Virus record (IMG/VR): IMGVR_UViG_2531839474_000014
Coordinates: 1 to 5,565 of that record
Direction: 5' to 3' (one strand)
DNA length: 5,565 nt
DNA from: a virus
Taxonomy: Duplodnaviria; Heunggongvirae; Uroviricota; Caudoviricetes
This document shows, one piece after another, positions 170-5,052 of the stretch. The notes under the pieces are model-generated. The model searched no databases, was not told where the DNA came from, and was given only the letters and a program-made list of their open reading frames with translations. The position numbers were made by a program, and so were the translations under genes. Every line of letters starts with the position of its first letter. The stretch's first letter is position 1.

Positions 170-227
170 AAAAAGGGCGGCAGAGCAGTCACGGAGTAAA
201 ACTGATACCGCCAAACGTCACCAGAAA
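170..227 (-). ncRNA. dicF: DicF-like small RNA (53-nt mature species about 175-227 plus U-tail to about 170), cell-division inhibitor sRNA of the dicB operon
   Basis: Minus-strand sequence TTTCTGGTGACGTTTGGCGGTATCAGTTTTACTCCGTGACTGCTCTGCCGCCC followed by TTTTT matches the E. coli DicF sequence as I recall it (53 nt). GGCGG...CCGCC stem plus U-run gives an intrinsic-terminator-like 3' end. Position downstream of ydfC-like gene matches the Qin order ydfABC-dicF-dicB. Confidence 0.75.
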
Positions 228-568: not shown

Positions 569-787
569 TTAACGCGGGTATGTAATCATTCTGGCAATGC
601 TTAATGCCGCTGCTTTTTCCAGATTGGTGATATCCTGCTCCAGAGAGAACAGATTTTCAGCCTGCTTAGCCCTGGCTTCATTAGCCCATTTCAGATCCTG
701 CGCTGCATTAATTTTCTGGTGCATCCACTCATAAAGTTCATCATCGGTATAGTCTGGCGCGATGATAACGGGTTCTCGTTTCTGCAT
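569..787 (-). CDS. ydfC: Small prophage protein, YdfC-like (72 aa), function unknown
   Basis: ORF with ATG at 787-785 preceded by GAGGAA 5 nt upstream (minus strand). 72 aa, same size and operon position as Qin YdfC. Symbol assigned from size, order and linkage to dicF, not from sequence alignment. Confidence 0.65.
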   Translation of the reverse strand: MQKREPVIIAPDYTDDELYEWMHQKINAAQDLKWANEARAKQAENLFSLEQDITNLEKAAALSIARMITYPR

Positions 788-816: not shown

Positions 817-945
817 TCAGCCGTTAGATTTTGCCGAACTGGAAAGCGCCTGTTTAAATTCGCTGAAGCTGAGAGCTTCTTCGCCTTCGGCAAGGCCTTC
901 GAAGTATTCTTCGTAAGCCTTTTCCATGATTGTGTCGAAATCCAT
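817..945 (-). CDS. ydfB: Small acidic protein, YdfB-like (42 aa: MDFDTIMEKAYEEYFEGLAEGEEALSFSEFKQALSSSAKSNG); not in the supplied ORF track
   Basis: Hand translation of the third minus frame. ATG at 945-943 preceded by AGGTGG with 5-nt spacer; stop at 819-817. Starts 1 nt after the ydfA-like stop. 42 aa matches the size of Qin YdfB. Confidence 0.6.
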   Translation of the reverse strand: MDFDTIMEKAYEEYFEGLAEGEEALSFSEFKQALSSSAKSNG

Positions 946-946
946 A

Positions 947-1102
947 TCACCCACCTGAATTTCTTTCCAGCCAGCGACGCGCTCCAGATTCGGTTTTAAA
1001 CGTTTTGCTTTTGGTATACGTCATTGCGGTGAACGTGCCGTCCTGGTTTGGAAACACGCCGTACACCAGAGATTCGTTGTTGCCAAGATCGATAGTATCC
1101 AT
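947..1102 (-). CDS. ydfA: Small prophage protein, YdfA-like (51 aa: MDTIDLGNNESLVYGVFPNQDGTFTAMTYTKSKTFKTESGARRWLERNSGG)
   Basis: Internal ATG (1102-1100) of the 947-1156 minus ORF has a GAGG RBS 6 nt upstream; the longer form has none. 51 aa matches Qin YdfA size; first gene after the repressor-controlled leftward promoter. Confidence 0.65.
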   Translation of the reverse strand: MDTIDLGNNESLVYGVFPNQDGTFTAMTYTKSKTFKTESGARRWLERNSGG

Positions 1103-1179: not shown

Positions 1180-1208
1180 AATTTAGAATAACCTAACATG
1201 AGAGGCAA
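1180..1208 (-). promoter_or_regulatory. Putative sigma70 promoter of the leftward ydfA-ydfB-ydfC-dicF operon (minus strand -35 TTGCCT at 1208-1203, 17-bp spacer, -10 TAAATT at 1185-1180)
   Basis: Hexamers read on the minus strand, each 4 of 6 to consensus. Flanked and overlapped by operator-like TTAG-N6-CTAA sites. Inferred from sequence only. Confidence 0.4.
1183..1196. promoter_or_regulatory. Operator-like site TTAGaataacCTAA overlapping the -10 of the leftward promoter
   Basis: Shares the TTAG-N6-CTAA core with three other sites around the repressor gene. Confidence 0.45.
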
Positions 1209-1215
1209 GTGTTTT

Positions 1216-1235
1216 TTGTTAGATTGATCTAACAA
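1216..1235. promoter_or_regulatory. Perfect palindrome TTGTTAGAT-tg-ATCTAACAA (9-bp arms), candidate repressor operator upstream of the leftward promoter
   Basis: Perfect dyad symmetry seen directly. Core TTAG-N6-CTAA at 1219-1232. Near-identical half-sites recur at 1728-1745 in the dicA-dicC intergenic region. Confidence 0.6.
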
Positions 1236-1270
1236 AAAGGGTGGGCGCAACTAATCACTTGAAAAGAATG

Positions 1271-1678
1271 TTATTTTATTGATTTATTTTTACGCGCTTT
1301 AAGCATTTCTTCGAAGAGTTTGTTGAAGTTTTCTACTCTTGCGCGCATTTCAGACAGCAAGGCTTCCTGCTCGGAAGATGGAAGAGCATCGAATAATTCG
1401 ATCAATTCTTTGTGGTTGGGAGTTAGCTCTGTTTCCACATGAAGTTCTTGTGCAGGCACTGGTGCCTTGTCTTCGTCACCAAACATTAGCCATGTAGGTG
1501 AGCACTTCAGAGCATCCGCTAAAGCAAACAATCGTTTTCCGACTGGCTGGGTTTCGTCTCTTTCCCATTGTGAAATTGTGACGTGAGCAACTCCAGCGAG
1601 GCGCGCGGCTTCTCGTTGTGTTAAGCGTAATTCTTTTCGTCGCGCCAGAACTCGCTGGCCCAGGGTTCTTGTATCCAT
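1271..1678 (-). CDS. dicA: DicA-like XRE-family HTH repressor (CI analogue), 135 aa
   Basis: N-terminal HTH (LRLTQREAARLAGVAHVTISQWERDETQP) and C-terminal half (CSPTW..FGDEDK ... EMRARVENFNKLFEEMLKARK) closely resemble E. coli DicA as recalled, same 135-aa length. The HTH recognition region differs, suggesting different operator specificity. Divergent from a Cro-like gene. Confidence 0.9.
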   Translation of the reverse strand: MDTRTLGQRVLARRKELRLTQREAARLAGVAHVTISQWERDETQPVGKRLFALADALKCSPTWLMFGDEDKAPVPAQELHVETELTPNHKELIELFDALPSSEQEALLSEMRARVENFNKLFEEMLKARKNKSIK

Positions 1679-1680
1679 AG

Positions 1681-1694
1681 TTAGGTAATTCTAA
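1681..1694. promoter_or_regulatory. Operator-like site TTAGgtaattCTAA next to the repressor start codon; overlaps a -10-like TAGAAT on the minus strand
   Basis: TTAG-N6-CTAA core. Minus-strand TAGAAT (complement of 1688-1693) sits 9 nt upstream of the dicA-like ATG, with no Shine-Dalgarno between. Confidence 0.4.
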
Positions 1695-1700
1695 TTTTTC

Positions 1701-1728
1701 TTGACTTAGGTATCCCGCGCACAATAAT
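1701..1728 (+). promoter_or_regulatory. Putative rightward promoter for the Cro-like gene (-35 TTGACT 1701-1706, 16-bp spacer, -10 AATAAT 1723-1728)
   Basis: -35 is 5 of 6 and -10 is 5 of 6 to consensus. The operator palindrome at 1728-1745 overlaps the -10 and predicted start site. Confidence 0.5.
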
Positions 1729-1745
1729 GTTAGAAAAGTCTAACA
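1728..1745. promoter_or_regulatory. Operator palindrome TGTTAG-aaaagt-CTAACA overlapping the rightward promoter
   Basis: Perfect 6-bp inverted arms with the same TGTTAG/CTAACA half-sites as the 1216-1235 palindrome. Confidence 0.6.
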
Positions 1746-1758
1746 AGAGGGGGATTTG

Positions 1759-1986
1759 ATGCTTAAAGTTGACGCAATTACTTTTTTTGGCAGCAAAACA
1801 AAGCTTGCCAATGCCGCAGGAGTGAGGCTGGCAAGTGTTGCTGCTTGGGGGATACTGGTTCCTGAAGGTCGCGCGATGCGTCTACAGGAGGCATCTGGCG
1901 GGGAGCTTCAGTATGATCCCAAAGTTTATGATGAATATCGTAAGACGAAGCGGGCGGGGCGGTTGAACAATGAAAATCACTCCTGA
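1759..1986 (+). CDS. dicC: Cro-like small DNA-binding protein (DicC analogue), about 75 aa
   Basis: Divergent from the repressor. ATG at 1759 with GAGGGGG RBS 5 nt upstream; the ORF-track start at 1756 is a TTG. Small basic protein in the Cro position. Symbol by position, not by verified alignment. Confidence 0.7.
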   Translation: MLKVDAITFFGSKTKLANAAGVRLASVAAWGILVPEGRAMRLQEASGGELQYDPKVYDEYRKTKRAGRLNNENHS

Positions 1987-2491
1987 ACAGGCTCGTGAGG
2001 CTCTGGATGCCTGGATATGTCGACCAGGAATGACACAGGAGCAGGCGACGATATTAATCACTGAAGCATTCTGGGCTTTGAAAGAGCGCCCGAACATCGA
2101 TGTTCAGCGTGTCACAGATGAAGGTGGCGCGGTTGATCAGCGAGCGCTTGGTGTTAATCGAGTGAAGATATTCGAACGCTGGAAGGCTATCGACACCAGG
2201 GATAAGCGTGAAAAGTTCACGGCGCTAGTGCCTGCGATTATGGAGGCTATCCGGATTAGTGATTTCAGGTTGTATCGTGAAATTACTGACGGAAAAAGCA
2301 TCACGTGCATGATCGCCGGGTTAAACAAAGAATATGGCGATGTGGTGGAGTCCGGACTGCTTTTTGCTGATCCTGCCGTAGTGGATCGTGAAACTGACGA
2401 ACTTATAGAAAAAGCAATTGCTTTCAAGCTTGCGTATCGACAGCAATACCAACAAAAAGCTGGATGGAATTATGAGCCTTCTTTTTGCTGA
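1970..2491 (+). CDS. YdaT-like protein (CII-analogue family), 173 aa
   Basis: Overlaps the Cro-like stop by 17 nt, suggesting translational coupling. The segment WKAIDTRDKREKFTALVPAIMEAIRISDFRLY resembles Rac YdaT (WLKGETKTQREKIQKLIPAILAILPRELRHRL) as recalled. Sits where CII would in a lambdoid layout. Confidence 0.6.
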   Translation: MKITPEQAREALDAWICRPGMTQEQATILITEAFWALKERPNIDVQRVTDEGGAVDQRALGVNRVKIFERWKAIDTRDKREKFTALVPAIMEAIRISDFRLYREITDGKSITCMIAGLNKEYGDVVESGLLFADPAVVDRETDELIEKAIAFKLAYRQQYQQKAGWNYEPSFC

Positions 2492-3437
2492 ACGCCCACT
2501 GGTTATAAACACGCAGCTGGCAATGAAAATTGGCTTAAACGAAGCCATTGTTTTGCAACAACTGCACTACTGGTTGAGAGATACCAACTCCGGCATGGAA
2601 TGTGATGGTGTTCGCTGGATTTATAACACAACGGAACAATGGCTGGAACAGTTCCCATTCTGGTCAGAGTCAACGTTAAAGCGCGCGTTTGCAAGTCTGA
2701 AAACGCTGGGGCTTTTGCGTTGTGAAAAGCTCAATAAATCAAAGCGCGATATGACCAATTTCTACACGATCAACTATGGGAGCGAGCTTTTAGATGGTGG
2801 CAAATTGAGCGAATCCATCGGTTCAAAATGCGCCGCTCCATCAGGTCAAAATGACACGATGGAAGAGGTCAAAATGAAACGCTCCATTGGTTCAAAACGA
2901 CTCAATGTCATCGGGTCAAAATGGCCTGATGATCTTACAGAGAATACAACAGAGATTACTACAGAGAATAAAAAGACTTCTCGTCCGGAAGCTTCGCAAC
3001 CGGACCCGCAGACGGTTGAACAGGATTTTTTAACCCGACACCCTGACGCGGTTGTGTTCAGTGCGAAAAAACGCCAGTGGGGCAGCCAGGAAGATTTGGC
3101 GTGTGCGCAGTGGATCTGGGGGCGAATCGTGAGTCTTTACGAGCAGGCCGCCAGCGATGATGGCGAGATTTCGCGACCGAAAGAACCCAACTGGACCGCA
3201 TGGGCCAACGACGTGCGCACAATGCGGATGCTGGATGGCAGAACTCACAGACAAATTTGTGAAATGTTTGGTCGGGTGCAGCGGGATCCATTCTGGGTAA
3301 AAAATATCATGAGTCCGTCAAAGCTTCGCGAAAAATGGGATGAACTGGTTATCCGCCTGGGGCGTTCGTCTGTACAGCGTTGTGTGAATCATATTTCTGA
3401 GCCGGATACCGAAATTCCGCCGGGCTTCAGGGGGTAA
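2472..3437 (+). CDS. Phage replication initiation protein (lambda-O-like organisation) with internal origin and DnaT-like C-terminal tail, 321 aa from the first ATG (alternative TTG start at 2418)
   Basis: Iterons and an AT-rich repeat block lie inside the coding sequence, as in lambda O. C-terminus VNHISEPDTEIPPGFRG matches the C-terminus of E. coli primosomal protein DnaT (...VNTVSEPDSQIPPGFRG) as recalled. Confidence 0.8.
   Translation: MSLLFAERPLVINTQLAMKIGLNEAIVLQQLHYWLRDTNSGMECDGVRWIYNTTEQWLEQFPFWSESTLKRAFASLKTLGLLRCEKLNKSKRDMTNFYTINYGSELLDGGKLSESIGSKCAAPSGQNDTMEEVKMKRSIGSKRLNVIGSKWPDDLTENTTEITTENKKTSRPEASQPDPQTVEQDFLTRHPDAVVFSAKKRQWGSQEDLACAQWIWGRIVSLYEQAASDDGEISRPKEPNWTAWANDVRTMRMLDGRTHRQICEMFGRVQRDPFWVKNIMSPSKLREKWDELVIRLGRSSVQRCVNHISEPDTEIPPGFRG
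2814..2923. repeat. Five direct iterons with core GGT(T/C)CAAAA(T/C)G, ending at 2830, 2853, 2876, 2899 and 2923 (23-24 bp phasing); putative phage origin inside the initiator gene
   Basis: tCCATCGGTTCAAAATG, tCCATCAGGTCAAAATG, gaAGAGGTCAAAATG, tCCATTGGTTCAAAACG, gtCATCGGGTCAAAATG. They encode repeated SIGSK-type peptides in the protein. Confidence 0.75.
2937..2970. repeat. Three 12-bp-phased A+T-rich repeats ACAGAGA(A/T)TA just right of the iterons; candidate DNA-unwinding element
   Basis: ACAGAGAATA at 2937, ACAGAGATTA at 2949, ACAGAGAATA at 2961. Position relative to the iterons mirrors the lambda origin. Confidence 0.55.
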
Positions 3438-3477: not shown

Positions 3478-3900
3478 GTGGCAAAAGTTTTTACACAAGA
3501 AGAGCGGGAAAAAATTAAAGGGCAGGTTGTTGAACTCGTACGCCGGAGTGGGCGTGAGACGTTACGGCAACTGGAAGTCAAGACAGGTGCGACAAGATAT
3601 CTGATGAGCGTTCTCGCAAGAGAGCTGGTTGCCAGCGGCGATGTATACAACTCTGGTTACGGGTTATTCCCGTCTGAACAGGCGCGTAAGGACTGGCAAA
3701 ATGCCCGTAAAAAGCTCTCAAGGGCAAAGCTGAAGGAACCATCTGCGGTTGATCCGGACCTTATCTGGTCATTACCTGACGGAGAAATACGTCGCTACGA
3801 CAGGCGTCAGAACATAATCTGTCGCGAGTGCCGGAAGAGTGAAGTTATGCAGCGCATACTAGCATTCTATCAGGGAAATGCTCGATATTTATTGAAGTGA
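3478..3900 (+). CDS. Hypothetical prophage protein, 140 aa, GTG start; possible winged-helix-like N-terminus
   Basis: AGGAGG RBS at 3468-3473 upstream of GTG 3478. Composition matches the neighbouring phage genes. Ends with tandem stops TGA TGA. No family recognised. Confidence 0.65.
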   Translation: MAKVFTQEEREKIKGQVVELVRRSGRETLRQLEVKTGATRYLMSVLARELVASGDVYNSGYGLFPSEQARKDWQNARKKLSRAKLKEPSAVDPDLIWSLPDGEIRRYDRRQNIICRECRKSEVMQRILAFYQGNARYLLK

Positions 3901-4082
3901 TGAGATTAAAGTTTATTAGTTCAGATATTGATTGGCTCTTTTGTGGAGTAGGGTAGAGTTAGTGTGTTTGTCTGCTTGGTGCCAGCAGCGGATATGTTTA
4001 ACAACAGAAAGCATTCAGCATGGTTAGTGGATTTGCAAAGTGGATTAGGATTTGAGAAACTTTGATGAAGTTGTAAAGCTTG

Positions 4083-4117
4083 TTTCTATAAAAATAGAAA
4101 TTTAACTAATAGTTAAA
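4083..4117. promoter_or_regulatory. Two adjacent A+T-rich palindromes (TTTCTAT-aaaa-ATAGAAA at 4083-4100; TTTAACT-aat-AGTTAAA at 4101-4117) about 35-70 bp upstream of the orphan ORF; candidate operator or promoter region
   Basis: Perfect 7-bp inverted arms seen directly. Followed by AAGGA RBS (4139-4143) and ATG at 4153. Confidence 0.35.
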
Positions 4118-4152
4118 CACACCTCCAGCTTCATTGAAAAGGATTATTAGCT

Positions 4153-5052
4153 ATGATTGATCCACTTATTAGAAACTTACAGAGTGATATTGCACTACTC
4201 CAGCTTTATATCGCGCAACGCAAACAGGCAGGCTTTCATGACATGGAAAGAATAATTGAGTCATTGACCATCTTTATGTTTCGCGCGCTGAAAATGGGTG
4301 AACTGGTAAACATGAATCAGATTAAAGTTAATTTTCCCGCCATTGATTTAGCTGATAATAAAAACATGATAGCAGTTCAAGTTACTACGAATGCAAGTCC
4401 AGCAAAAATTAAAAAAACTATCGAATCTTTTGAGAAAATAAATGAAATAGGAGAGAGTCTGAAAGATAAATACTCTACTTTATATATTTTTGGTTTTTGT
4501 AAAGCCTCAAGATACCTAACTCCAAGTTATTGTAAAATAATCGACCCCAGCTATTTCGTGAATGAACTTTGCGATAAAGCAGATGAAGATATGGTCCAGG
4601 ATATGATTGACGCCATTCGACGCCATCATGATTATACATCATTACATCCATGGAGTGATAAAGATTCACTCGAAATTATACTCAATATTATTAATCGCAA
4701 TGCAATAAAACATCGGATGAGTTGCGAAGGCAGTCTGTCTGATATGCTCACTGGTTTAAAAGAAATTAATGAAGTAATTACAAAAGGAACAATTCAACGT
4801 AAGCAACGTTCAAAATCGATATCTGACTTCAAAGATCAAAGCATGGTGAAATTTATGAGAGGTGTAATGGATGATTTGTCTGTTATTCAAGCCATAGTGA
4901 ACAAATCTAAAGTTAACCAAGGTGATATGGTTTATATAAGCCATGAAGATATGATTAATATTGATAAATTAAAAGCTAAAATAGCAAGTGATTCATCAGA
5001 GATTGCAAGGCTAAATAATATTGATATAACACTAAATGTTGTTGATTTATAA
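4153..5052 (+). CDS. Orphan low-GC protein, 299 aa, function unknown; candidate accessory (defence or abortive-infection type) gene
   Basis: Long uninterrupted ORF with AAGGA RBS 9 nt upstream. G+C roughly 30-35 percent by eye against about 50 percent in flanking genes. No catalytic motif recognised. N-terminal segment NFPAIDLADNKNMIAVQVTTNASPAKIKK loosely recalls N-terminal domains of conflict-system proteins (unverified). Confidence 0.8.
   Translation: MIDPLIRNLQSDIALLQLYIAQRKQAGFHDMERIIESLTIFMFRALKMGELVNMNQIKVNFPAIDLADNKNMIAVQVTTNASPAKIKKTIESFEKINEIGESLKDKYSTLYIFGFCKASRYLTPSYCKIIDPSYFVNELCDKADEDMVQDMIDAIRRHHDYTSLHPWSDKDSLEIILNIINRNAIKHRMSCEGSLSDMLTGLKEINEVITKGTIQRKQRSKSISDFKDQSMVKFMRGVMDDLSVIQAIVNKSKVNQGDMVYISHEDMINIDKLKAKIASDSSEIARLNNIDITLNVVDL

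Follow-up and report, generated by a model that had tools for sequence, protein, structure and literature searches.

The best described relative of the locus treated here is the dicA-dicC-dicBp region of the Qin prophage of Escherichia coli K-12, where DicA and DicC govern dicB and dicF, whose prophage-encoded products inhibit cell division and change phage sensitivity. Work in K-12 has shown that DicA represses both dicCp and dicBp, that dicBp is placed upstream of ydfA, that the switch is bistable, and that derepression can follow from the antirepressor Rem, heat or urea (PMC10448788). The dicA/dicC/dicBp arrangement, in which dicCp is PR-like and dicBp is PL-like, has been described in work cited by that paper. 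At the level of single operators, the Oc site beside dicC binds DicA in vivo, and a single A-to-C change in its CTAACA sequence destroys the binding; neither Oa nor the middle site Om bound DicA in vivo when each was present alone (PMC3441716). The DicA site at the dicC promoter is treated as well established, and Reg-Seq confirmed it in K-12 but found no active dicA start site (PMC7567609). As for DicC, ChIP-seq work inferred binding on both sides of dicA and a palindromic motif, TT(A/C/T)G...C(G/A/T)AA, and reported a 48- to 84-fold repression of dicA by DicC (PMC11430063). No DicA or DicC motif was found in the main text of the ChIP compendium PMC12059191.

The window and its four sites

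The window, meaning the whole stretch of 5,565 nucleotides analysed, has a Qin-type gene layout: dicF and ydfCBA read leftward with a DicA-family repressor gene, and dicC, ydaT and an O-like gene read rightward. Its features, with the four sites given as candidate operators, are the following.

175-226, minus strand: DicF sRNA (Rfam DicF, 76.7 bits; cut-off 48)
569-787, minus strand: ydfC (annotation of a near-identical genome)
817-945, minus strand: ydfB (same annotation)
947-1102, minus strand: ydfA (same annotation; Pfam DUF1391)
1180-1208, minus strand: putative leftward dicBp-like (PL-like) promoter; -35 TTGCCT at 1208-1203, 17-bp spacer, -10 TAAATT at 1185-1180
1181-1198: site 1, candidate left operator nearer the promoter, ATTTAGAATAACCTAACA; core TTAG-N6-CTAA at 1183-1196
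1213-1238: site 2, candidate distal left operator, TTTTTGTTAGAT-TG-ATCTAACAAAAA; 18-mer TGTTAGATTGATCTAACA at 1217-1234
1271-1678, minus strand: DicA-family repressor, 135 aa; N-terminal HTH_3 domain and short helical C-terminal part
1679-1696: site 3, abutting the repressor start codon; exact core TTAGGTAATTCTAA at 1681-1694
1701-1728, plus strand: putative rightward dicCp/PR-like promoter; TTGACT at 1701-1706, 16-bp spacer, AATAAT at 1723-1728
1728-1745: site 4, exact 18-mer TGTTAGAAAAGTCTAACA; counterpart of K-12 Oc
1759-1986, plus strand: DicC/P22_Cro-family gene, 75 aa, divergent from the repressor
1970-2491, plus strand: YdaT-family (CII-like) gene; Pfam YdaT_toxin, PHROG 163 "CII-like transcriptional activator"
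2472-3437, plus strand: replication-initiation O-like gene; PHROG 391 "replication initiation O-like"

The core shared by the sites, TTAGNNNNNNCTAA (TTAG-N6-CTAA), occurs exactly four times in the 5,565 bases scanned (1183-1196, 1219-1232, 1681-1694 and 1730-1743), just where a preliminary description had placed it and nowhere else. All four matches fall within 560 bp, inside 1183-1743, against a chance expectation of 0.06, and four were reached in 0 of 200 shuffles of the window. Allowing one mismatch over the whole window adds a single unrelated match at 4348 and yields no third full site on either side. The longer 18-mer, TGTTAG-N6-CTAACA, is exact at 1217-1234 and 1728-1745 and has two mismatches at 1181-1198. 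Sites 2 and 4 had both been called perfect palindromes; this is true of site 2, where arms of 12 + 12 bases are 100% complementary around a 2-base centre, but at site 4 the symmetry is limited to the outer 7 + 7 bases and the centre, AAAAGT, is asymmetric. Sites 1 and 2 lie 36 bp apart and sites 3 and 4 lie 49 bp apart, centre to centre; cooperativity within the pairs is at most a possibility, since these distances do not correspond to whole helical turns and differ from lambda's 23-24 bp.

Promoter-like elements lie at or beside the sites. The rightward promoter, which is sigma-70-like and points at the Cro-like gene, was the sole match of a promoter scan (10 of 12 positions), and its -35, read as AGTCAA on the other strand, is invariant in nine alleles from several genera. 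Site 4 begins at the -10 of this promoter and spans the -10 end and the start site, so that an Oc-type operator, TTGTTAG-N6-CTAACAA, is present at the dicC promoter, abutting the -10 at 1723-1728. The scan of the window called neither the leftward nor the repressor promoter, both of which are weak consensus matches; the leftward one was missed because just 8 of 12 positions match. We infer the leftward promoter from its hexamers and from its alignment with a TTGACC-17-TAATCT stretch upstream of ydfA in K-12. Its CTTG[AC]C element is kept in 9 of 9 class A alleles; site 1 sits within its spacer and -10, and site 2 lies about 8 bp upstream of its -35. The ydfABC-dicF operon lies downstream of the repressor gene on the same strand, behind a putative promoter of its own that would drive ydfA-ydfB-ydfC-dicF and, past the left end of the window, dicB, which the annotation of a near-identical genome places just outside. 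Site 3 holds a -10-like TAGAAT (1693-1688, minus strand) only 9 bases before the repressor ATG, which suggests a near-leaderless repressor mRNA. An overlap of the two weaker sites with the -10 regions of the leftward and repressor promoters, as first proposed, is plausible given TAAATT and TAGAAT.

The repressor matches NCBIfam NF007257 ("transcriptional repressor DicA") at 224.7 bits, well above the cut-off of 101, covering 1-134 of 135; K-12 DicA itself scores 234.3 bits. It is 57% identical to K-12 DicA, with 12 of 22 residues identical over helices 2-3, which bears out the early view of a DicA-like protein whose HTH differs from that of K-12. A Pfam search returned HTH families only (HTH_3), with no peptidase or autocleavage (LexA-like) domain in the 135 residues, and K-12 DicA lacks an autocleavage domain too (PMC10448788). 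Residues 1-68 align gaplessly to the N-terminal domain of P22 c2 (PDB 1ADR/2R1J, E=1e-18), and V33, Q37 and E42 of c2 are all present. DNA-reading roles are known for Val33 and Gln37 of c2 (PMC5175364), and we infer the corresponding residue-to-base assignments for the window repressor. Val33, Gln37, His32 and the TQR that opens helix 2 are common to the window and K-12 alleles, whereas the loop after helix 3 reads RDETQ in the window and R(G/D)DSE in K-12. The DicC-like protein matches NCBIfam NF007282 ("DicC") at 165.8 bits (cut-off 130) and Pfam P22_Cro (PF14549) at 45.9 (cut-off 30.2). It is 86% identical to K-12 DicC, and every difference falls in the first ~32 residues, which contain the HTH.

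Comparison with K-12 Qin and with other switches

K-12 Qin agrees with the window in the order and orientation of its genes from dicF to dicC, and in their protein families. Its sites occupy the same four positions, their outer half-sites (TGTTAG/CTAACA) are those of the window, and their spacings differ by no more than 1 bp. The positional counterpart of site 1 is TGTTAGTCATGGCTAATC, upstream of ydfA; that of site 3 is Oa, TTAGCATTAGCTAA, near-identical and at the same position; and site 4 aligns column for column with Oc, TTGTTAGTCATAACTAACAA, with the same half-sites. The switch architecture is already known, since the K-12 sites match in position and half-sites and Oc is the published DicA operator. 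The preliminary description had envisaged a lambda-like OL/OR arrangement around a DicA-like repressor, built from a different operator sequence. The layout holds and is shared with K-12 Qin, but the idea of a sequence different from that of K-12 has to be abandoned for the outer half-sites, because the K-12 region reads TGTTAG/CTAACA as well. Compared with the K-12 dicA operators, those of the window are neither identical nor a new sequence.

The two loci do differ in several respects. Spacers in K-12 read YCATGR, while those of the window begin with a purine and are otherwise free; the palindrome of the distal left site is perfect in the window, whereas K-12 has a degenerate arm there (CATACA); nothing in the window corresponds to the K-12 Om site; and ydaT and the replication genes, lost from K-12 Qin, are intact. 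The differences are concentrated in a 680-bp cassette, 1181-1860, which comprises the four candidate operators, the three putative promoters, the repressor gene and the DNA-binding end of DicC. Identity to K-12 here is 32-80% in 40-base steps (about 55% overall), against 98-100% in the flanks (90-100% in 40-base steps over 141-1180 and 95-100% over 1861-2220), so that the cassette is swapped as one block, resembling a lambdoid imm region. The difference lies in the allele; the system has already been described in K-12, and the finding is sound but mostly ordinary. About 10% of the complete genomes of E. coli carry the window-type allele, among them those of the laboratory strains B/BL21-type and C and of the reference strain ATCC 25922, and the operator map lets the K-12 regulatory model be transferred to such strains.

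In 20+ relatives the sites keep these four positions and the distances between them, and the half-sites vary along with the recognition helix; window and K-12 belong to one half-site class. For example, the helix SGSSISLWES goes with the palindrome ATTGAG-N4-CTCAAT, and SSVSVFKWE goes with ATAACT..AGTTAT, at the same positions. Among the nine class A alleles (Escherichia, Citrobacter, Rahnella and Symbiopectobacterium), invariant intergenic columns cluster in GTTAG, CTAAC and the -35 elements. Class B is the DicA-like cassette of O157:H7 and phage PPompW. In classes A and B the pair spacings are conserved (left 35-36 bp, right 49-51 bp), and all relatives of both classes have a near-identical counterpart of site 3 at the same position. 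Among 80 copies from IMG/VR, the half-sites hardly vary, nor do sites 1 and 3, while the spacer and centre of site 2 take at least 10 forms.

The four palindromes almost certainly serve as binding sites for the repressor in a common variant of the Qin DicA/DicC switch of E. coli. The fuller account, that they are the operators of a Qin-type lambdoid switch in which a DicA-family repressor is opposed by a DicC counter-repressor, and that this is a second common allele with K-12 outer half-sites but another first spacer base, is very probable. The roles proposed for the single sites draw on the K-12 system, in which DicA has been shown to bind Oc and to repress dicCp and dicBp, and in which DicC peaks lie on both sides of dicA. 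A DicA dimer would bind the 18-bp TGTTAG-N6-CTAACA, each monomer reading one half-site through its P22 c2-like HTH. On site 4, DicA would cover the rightward -10 and start, keeping dicC, ydaT and the replication genes off and, by analogy with K-12 Oc, favouring transcription of the repressor gene. At the leftward dicBp-like promoter, which sites 1 and 2 flank, bound DicA would silence ydfABC-dicF-dicB, with its cell-division inhibitors. Site 3, overlapping the TAGAAT of the repressor, would be a weak DicA site, probably preferred by DicC, and is a candidate for an OR3-like role; DicC bound at it would turn the repressor off and make the switch bistable. Considering the lack of an autocleavage domain in the repressor, induction would presumably proceed by antirepressor or heat, as shown in K-12.

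Other phage switches share parts of this plan. Like the window, lambda has divergent repressor and cro genes, with operators that overlap the rightward lytic promoter, the promoter of the repressor itself and the far-side leftward promoter, a layout kept in relatives; bistability is known from K-12 data. The lambda operators, however, have no sequence similarity to the window sites. They number three per side (OR1-3 and OL1-3, at 23-24 bp) as opposed to two per side at 36 and 49 bp, and lambda CI undergoes a RecA-dependent cleavage for which the window repressor has no domain. P22 is closer in its proteins: the 68 N-terminal residues of c2 align gaplessly with the window repressor, Val33, Gln37 and Glu42 are kept, and the Cro-like protein belongs to Pfam P22_Cro. 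P22 operators (ATTTAAGATATCTTAAAT) and the window sites are both 18-mers with TpA steps 10 bp apart, which in P22 are touched by Val33. The P22 operator ATTTAAG-N4-CTTAAAT is nevertheless not matched at the window sites, where only TTA and the 10-bp TpA spacing are shared; the half-sites ATTTAAG and TGTTAGn differ at positions 1, 2, 6 and 7. Residue 32 is His in the window repressor and Asn in c2, c2 has a LexA-like cleavage/oligomerisation domain in place of the short helical C-terminus, and P22 has three adjacent operators per side, unlike the two separated ones here. The PaaR2/YdaS/YdaT system of CP-933P (E. coli O157:H7) likewise has a repressor at the cI/dicA position, a Cro-like YdaS, a CII-like YdaT, and PR-, PRM- and PL-like promoters. 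Its leaderless repressor mRNA fits the -10 abutting the ATG in the window. The PaaR2 paper describes low sequence similarity to cI and DicA, and the repressor is followed by a toxin-antitoxin pair in CP-933P and by ydfABC-dicF in the window.

Immunity specificity of the cassette

The preliminary description took it as probable that the element has its own immunity specificity. As written, this is unsupported, since the K-12 half-sites, Val33, Gln37 and the helix-2 TQR are all shared. A separate specificity is nonetheless possible from the sequence, and partial or one-way heteroimmunity may apply, because the cassette was swapped whole, the first spacer base (position 7) differs, and the HTH of the Cro-like protein differs from that of K-12. 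In its strict form, this reading holds that K-12 DicA and DicC would not control the window operators, nor the window proteins those of K-12, with discrimination by the inner positions and the loop after helix 3 rather than by the outer half-sites; it is a doubtful proposal. An exchanged block of about 55% identity between flanks of 98-100% is the pattern of a lambdoid imm swap. Of 20 distinct window-type half-sites, 19 have a purine at spacer position 7, whereas 15 of 15 K-12-type ones have a pyrimidine there; K-12-type centres are YCATGR (13 of 15 have A at position 9), as opposed to the free centres of the window type. The loop that reads RDETQ rather than R(G/D)DSE corresponds to the one holding Glu42 in P22 c2, where this residue sets the preference at the equivalent base (PMC5175364). 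Against this stand the twelve outer bases, which are those of K-12 Oc, including the A whose mutation abolishes binding of K-12 DicA, together with Val33, Gln37, His32 and TQR, common to both alleles. As far as is known, heteroimmune lambdoid pairs are told apart by contacted bases of the half-site and not by spacers alone, which counts against the proposal. Moreover, the K-12-type pyrimidine comes from one lineage, 88-100% identical, and the changes seen at this position are all transitions, so that mutation bias could explain the pattern; a scan of IMG/VR for lineages with the K-12-type loop returned copies that were almost all window-type. Relatives with GDS loops in Rahnella and Symbiopectobacterium have mixed bases at position 7, so the link between the loop Asp and a pyrimidine is not general.

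Class B adds a third point of comparison. Its repressor, 66% identical to that of the window, has an identical helix 3 and following loop (AHVTISQWERDETQP), its DicC HTH is nearly identical, and the TTAG-N6-CTAA core lies at the same four positions, all 23 of its 23 half-sites having a purine at spacer position 7, which counts in favour of the heteroimmune reading. Its outer half-site differs, being CCTTAG/CTAAGG, never with G at position 2, as against TGTTAG/CTAACA, and helix 2 starts with SQAALGK as against TQREAAR. Across the cassettes, half-site positions 1-2 are TG with TQR and CC with SQA at the start of helix 2, and position 7 is a purine with RDETQ/VRLASVAAW and a pyrimidine with R(G/D)DSE/IRLASLYSW. 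The cassette of the window would look recombinant, its outer bases being K-12-like and its inner base and DicC being O157/PPompW-like. It is conceivable, if rather unlikely, that E. coli holds at least three DicA/DicC cassettes with modular operators, in which positions 1-2 track helix 2 and position 7 tracks the loop and DicC, the cassette of the window being intermediate and heteroimmune to both others. This would amount to a two-position immunity code in a prophage family that controls host cell division.

Should the inner-position difference confer an immunity of its own, Qin-like prophages living in one cell would be shielded from one another's control, and the family could serve as a small natural series in which to study specificity change in HTH repressors. 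If it does not, recognising the locus is routine, one more case of a textbook-style switch. No genome with two window-type copies was found among 567 records (567 places). A concatenated query of K-12-type and window-type sequence gave 1531 records and 1668 places, at most two per genome, with second places inseparable from partial matches to the O157-class cassette (query 487-665, ~80% identity).

Alternative readings of individual sites

Another means of explaining the four sites is that operator function is confined to sites 2 and 4, the two perfect 18-mers, and that sites 1 and 3 are -10 regions without a regulator, carrying the core by descent or chance. Sites 1 and 3 do match just the 4 + 4 core, where they overlap TAAATT and TAGAAT, and their near invariance in the population is what promoter elements would show; their conservation could partly reflect promoter function, because both overlap -10-like hexamers. 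Site 3 may also be no DicA site, since its K-12 counterpart, Oa, failed to bind DicA in vivo on its own (PMC3441716). Four exact cores against 0.06 expected speak against this reading, as does the left promoter-proximal site, which covaries in other specificities (e.g., TAATGAGAAAACTAAAT beside ACTTGAGTTTTCTCAT in the TTGAG class). DicC sites inferred on both sides of dicA, and the 48- to 84-fold repression of dicA (PMC11430063), point the same way, and repression of dicBp solely from a site upstream of the -35 would be unusual. On balance, two operators are an improbable alternative to the four of the DicA/DicC switch.

That the 26-bp palindrome 1213-1238 is an RNA hairpin terminating or stabilising the repressor transcript, rather than a protein site, is scarcely credible: it does lie 33 bases past the stop codon of the repressor gene, and its folding gives z = -2.3 against shuffles, but its AT-rich stem is weak (-9.6 to -10.5 kcal/mol), a T tract is absent on both strands, a terminator scan did not call it, its arms are the TGTTAG/CTAACA of the other sites, the degenerate K-12 arm (CATACA) would break it, and variation in the 80 IMG/VR copies is confined to the loop or centre with no compensatory changes in the arms. 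A terminator was accordingly rejected for this palindrome, on account of the weak hairpin, the missing T tract and the shared arms. The window-type repressor is at present annotated merely as a "helix-turn-helix domain-containing protein".

Four operator-like sites in a Qin-like control region

The window comes from a Qin-like lambdoid prophage of E. coli, of which it is the early-control region. Its relevant features are as follows.

Features of the control region
175-226, minus strand: complete gene for the DicF sRNA (Rfam RF00039, positions 1-52 of the 52-position model; 76.7 bits, cut-off 48)
569-787, minus strand: ydfC
between ydfA and ydfC, leftward: ydfB, minus strand
947-1102, minus strand: ydfA
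1183-1196: site 1, centred at about -17 of the leftward promoter
1219-1232: site 2, centred at about -53 of the leftward promoter
1271-1678, minus strand: helix-turn-helix (HTH) repressor, 135 aa
1681-1694: site 3, containing TAGAAT 9 bases before the repressor ATG; no Shine-Dalgarno sequence
1730-1743: site 4, with its centre near +1 of the rightward promoter and near -56 of the repressor promoter
1759-1986, plus strand: P22_Cro-family gene, 75 aa
1970-2491, plus strand: YdaT/CII-like gene
2472-3437, plus strand: O-like replication gene
after the O-like gene, in the rightward reading: DUF977 gene
4153-5052, in the rightward reading: SMEK_N-domain protein, 299 aa

The repressor scored 224.7 bits with the NCBI DicA model (cut-off 101), and the Cro-like protein 165.8 bits with the DicC model (cut-off 130). 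The DicF gene lies downstream of ydfC, so a cell-division-inhibiting sRNA would be under the control of the leftward promoter, guarded in turn by sites 1 and 2; dicB, as placed from a near-identical genome, is just beyond the left end.

The core TTAG-N6-CTAA occurs exactly four times in the window (starts 1183, 1219, 1681 and 1730), where chance predicts 0.06 and none of 200 shuffles gave four. With one mismatch allowed, the sole additional match is an unrelated one at 4348. The longer TGTTAG-N6-CTAACA has exact matches at 1217-1234 and 1728-1745 and one with two mismatches at 1181-1198. These core and 18-mer searches bear out both the coordinates of the preliminary description and its wording of two strong and two weak sites. 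Site 2 sits within a palindrome with fully complementary 12+12 arms (1213-1238), while the symmetry of site 4 (1728-1745) is confined to the outer 7+7 bases. A terminator reading of the 26-bp palindrome was rejected, as its fold is weak (-9.6 to -10.5 kcal/mol), T tract and scan call are both lacking, and one arm is degenerate in K-12. The single call of the promoter scan, TTGACT-16-AATAAT at 1701-1728, is directed toward the Cro-like gene, and site 4 starts at its -10. An isolated minus-strand half-site, CTAAG (plus-strand CTTAG, 1705-1709), abuts the -35 TTGACT (1701-1706) and may be the remnant of a third right-hand operator; CTAAGTCAA is kept here in the window-type and O157/PPompW alleles, and the K-12 equivalent is CATAGTCAA.

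Farther right, the SMEK_N gene is contained in a low-GC island (3900-5250, 30-36% GC against about 50% around it) and is flanked on either side by an AT-rich untranslated stretch. The 299-aa protein had no PHROG match, and the gene has the look of an accessory ("moron") insertion. The best-matching genomes are similar only as far as 5354, and the last 180 or so bases hold the end of a minus-strand ORF running off the window (49 aa listed, 5389-5538). This ORF had no Pfam match; it presumably resembles the C-terminus of IS256/mutator-family transposases, a likeness that suggests an insertion-sequence junction at the right end.

The K-12 Qin switch and a likely mechanism

The same layout is found in MG1655 Qin. 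Read in the window's orientation, TTAGCCATGACTAA lies upstream of ydfA, in the stretch to which the literature assigns dicBp, with the degenerate TATGCTATAGCTAA 36 bp farther from ydfA; TTAGCTAATGCTAA abuts the dicA ATG, and TGTTAGTTATGACTAACA (Oc) adjoins dicC. Yun et al. showed that TTGTTAGTCATAACTAACAA cloned as an operator gives DicA-dependent repression in vivo, that a single A-to-C change in CTAACA of Oc abolishes it, and that the sequence-predicted Om and Oa do not bind DicA when alone (PMC3441716). Ragunathan et al. described dicCp and dicBp as analogues of PR and PL with operators on either side of dicA, in a bistable switch; as DicA has no site for RecA cleavage, derepression is through the antirepressor Rem, heat or urea (PMC10448788). 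Reg-Seq has used the DicA site at dicC as a gold standard (PMC7567609), and the ChIP-seq signal of DicC is strongest at this Qin locus (PMC11430063). The proposal of a lambda OL/OR-like repressor/operator switch with sites flanking the repressor is thus right, but it restates the published, already known architecture of Qin. A middle palindrome of K-12, ATGTTAACAAAAACAT (2386-2401 of the K-12 locus L002), is probably the published Om. Comparison with window positions 1695-1727 gave no counterpart in the window allele, nor was there one in the Citrobacter relatives, an absence that agrees with the reported lack of DicA binding by Om.

A likely means of recognition comes from phage P22. Residues 1-68 of the repressor form a gapless alignment with the DNA-binding domain of P22 c2 (E=1e-18). 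In the c2 complex, each TTAA half-site has Val33 on its TpA step, neighbouring bases are read by Gln37 and, via water, Glu42, and 10 bp separate the TpA steps of the operator's two halves (PMC5175364). TGTTAG-N6-CTAACA has the same 10-bp spacing, and the K-12 mutation that abolishes binding falls on the A of the TpA step. From these three points, we infer a repressor dimer that reads two half-sites as P22 c2 does. Site 4 would repress dicC-ydaT-O and favour transcription of the repressor gene, by analogy with the demonstrated effect of K-12 Oc, while sites 1 and 2 together would silence ydfABC-dicF-dicB; the left and right sets are about 510 bp apart. The TAGAAT of site 3 would be the -10 of the repressor promoter and yield a near-leaderless mRNA, for which lambda cI and paaR2 offer precedent (PMC8630535). 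Site 3 is also the probable site through which DicC shuts off the repressor, because Oa, its K-12 counterpart, does not bind DicA on its own and dicA is repressed 48- to 84-fold by DicC.

Conservation of the sites among relatives

Comparison with relatives argues that the sites are functional. Twenty-three cassettes from genomes and phages were brought into one orientation by their repressor gene. Class A carries TGTTAG/CTAACA half-sites and class B, the O157/PPompW type, carries CCTTAG/CTAAGG. In both classes, where sites were located systematically, they occupy the same four places, the left pair 35-36 bp and the right pair 49-51 bp apart; more distant relatives have their own palindromes at similar places. 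The intergenic columns that never vary among nine class A alleles (Escherichia, Citrobacter, Rahnella and Symbiopectobacterium) cluster in GTTAG, in CTAAC and in both -35 elements. The half-sites are also almost invariant in 80 IMG/VR copies of the window-type cassette (L032-L111), where the 6-bp centre of site 2 (1223-1228) takes at least 10 forms beside an identical repressor and sites 1 and 3 scarcely vary. Near-invariant half-sites around a free spacer in site 2 mark a protein site whose centre is not contacted, and speak against an RNA hairpin. The site 2 centre itself resembles a local hot spot of variation.

Recognition helices pair with operator types across the set: HV(S/T)(I/V)SQWE with TGTTAG-N6-CTAACA, SGSSISLWES with ATTGAG-N4-CTCAAT, (H/Y)A(S/T)ISLWES with TTGTTGAG...TTAACAA, and SSVSVFKWE with ATAACT..AGTTAT. 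In five TTGAG-type relatives (L010, L012, L013, L015 and L019), the ATG-abutting site, about 20 bases before the repressor ATG, is TTAAGATA(T/A)CTAAA, closer in appearance to the P22 operator half TTAAGATATC than to the rest of their own sites; the Cro-like protein or the promoter, not the repressor, may be what it serves.

Cassette exchange and the question of immunity

Identity to K-12, computed in 40-base steps, is 90-100% over 141-1180 and 95-100% over 1861-2220, but falls to 32-80% (about 55% overall) over 1181-1860. The divergent block starts at the leftward promoter -10 and ends near dicC codon 34, inside the gene; it therefore holds the four sites, three promoters, the repressor and only the DNA-binding end of DicC. 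From about that codon on, identity is back at 98-100%. The repressor is 57% identical to K-12 DicA, and every difference in DicC falls within its first 32 or so residues. Such a sharply bounded cassette exchange is what lambdoid imm-region swaps look like. The window-type allele is present, one copy each, in 567 of the 5,426 complete genomes of E. coli, among them B derivatives, strain C, ATCC 25922 and NRG 857C, where its repressor is annotated only as "helix-turn-helix domain-containing protein"; the full K-12-type cassette occurs in 851. The allele is a widespread, under-annotated member of the Qin DicA/DicC switch family.

The preliminary description had argued from a divergent HTH to a distinct specificity and immunity, an argument borne out only in part. 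The divergence is real, with 10 of 22 positions in helices 2 and 3 differing from K-12 DicA, but the TQR opening helix 2, the H-V-x-x-S-Q-W-E-R of helix 3 and all twelve outer operator bases are shared; these features place the window and K-12 in a single operator class, and the main recognition bases lend a distinct immunity no support. There is, all the same, a consistent difference at an inner position, the first spacer base (position 7). Window-type sites, including those of Citrobacter and an IMG/VR lineage at 72-74% identity, have a purine there in 19 of 20 distinct half-sites (the centre being otherwise unconstrained), as do class B sites (23 of 23), while K-12-type sites have a pyrimidine in 15 of 15, within a YCATGR centre with A at position 9 in 13 of 15. 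This difference tracks the loop after helix 3 (RDETQ in window type and class B, R(G/D)DSE in K-12 type), homologous in place to P22 Glu42, and the DicC HTH (VRLASVAAWG against IRLASLYSWKG, respectively). However, the pyrimidine state represents one lineage, 88-100% identical, in which the changes are all transitions, and two other genera with GDS loops have mixed bases at position 7. Meaningful heteroimmunity with K-12 Qin is therefore less likely than not, and cross-recognition would be the likelier outcome.

The O157/PPompW cassette, a third type in E. coli, is a truly different operator class. Its loci (L026, L027 and L028 from E. coli, O157 and phage PPompW; L007 from Enterobacter) share helix 3 with the window and have an almost identical DicC HTH; however, helix 2 opens with SQAALGK, unlike the window's TQR, and the sites read CCTTAG-N6-CTAAGG, with G at position 2 in none of 23 distinct half-sites. 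Class B cassettes carry an additional partial site, TCGTAGAGAAACCTAAGT, over the -35 region, and in some genomes they occur together with the window type, at two places per record.
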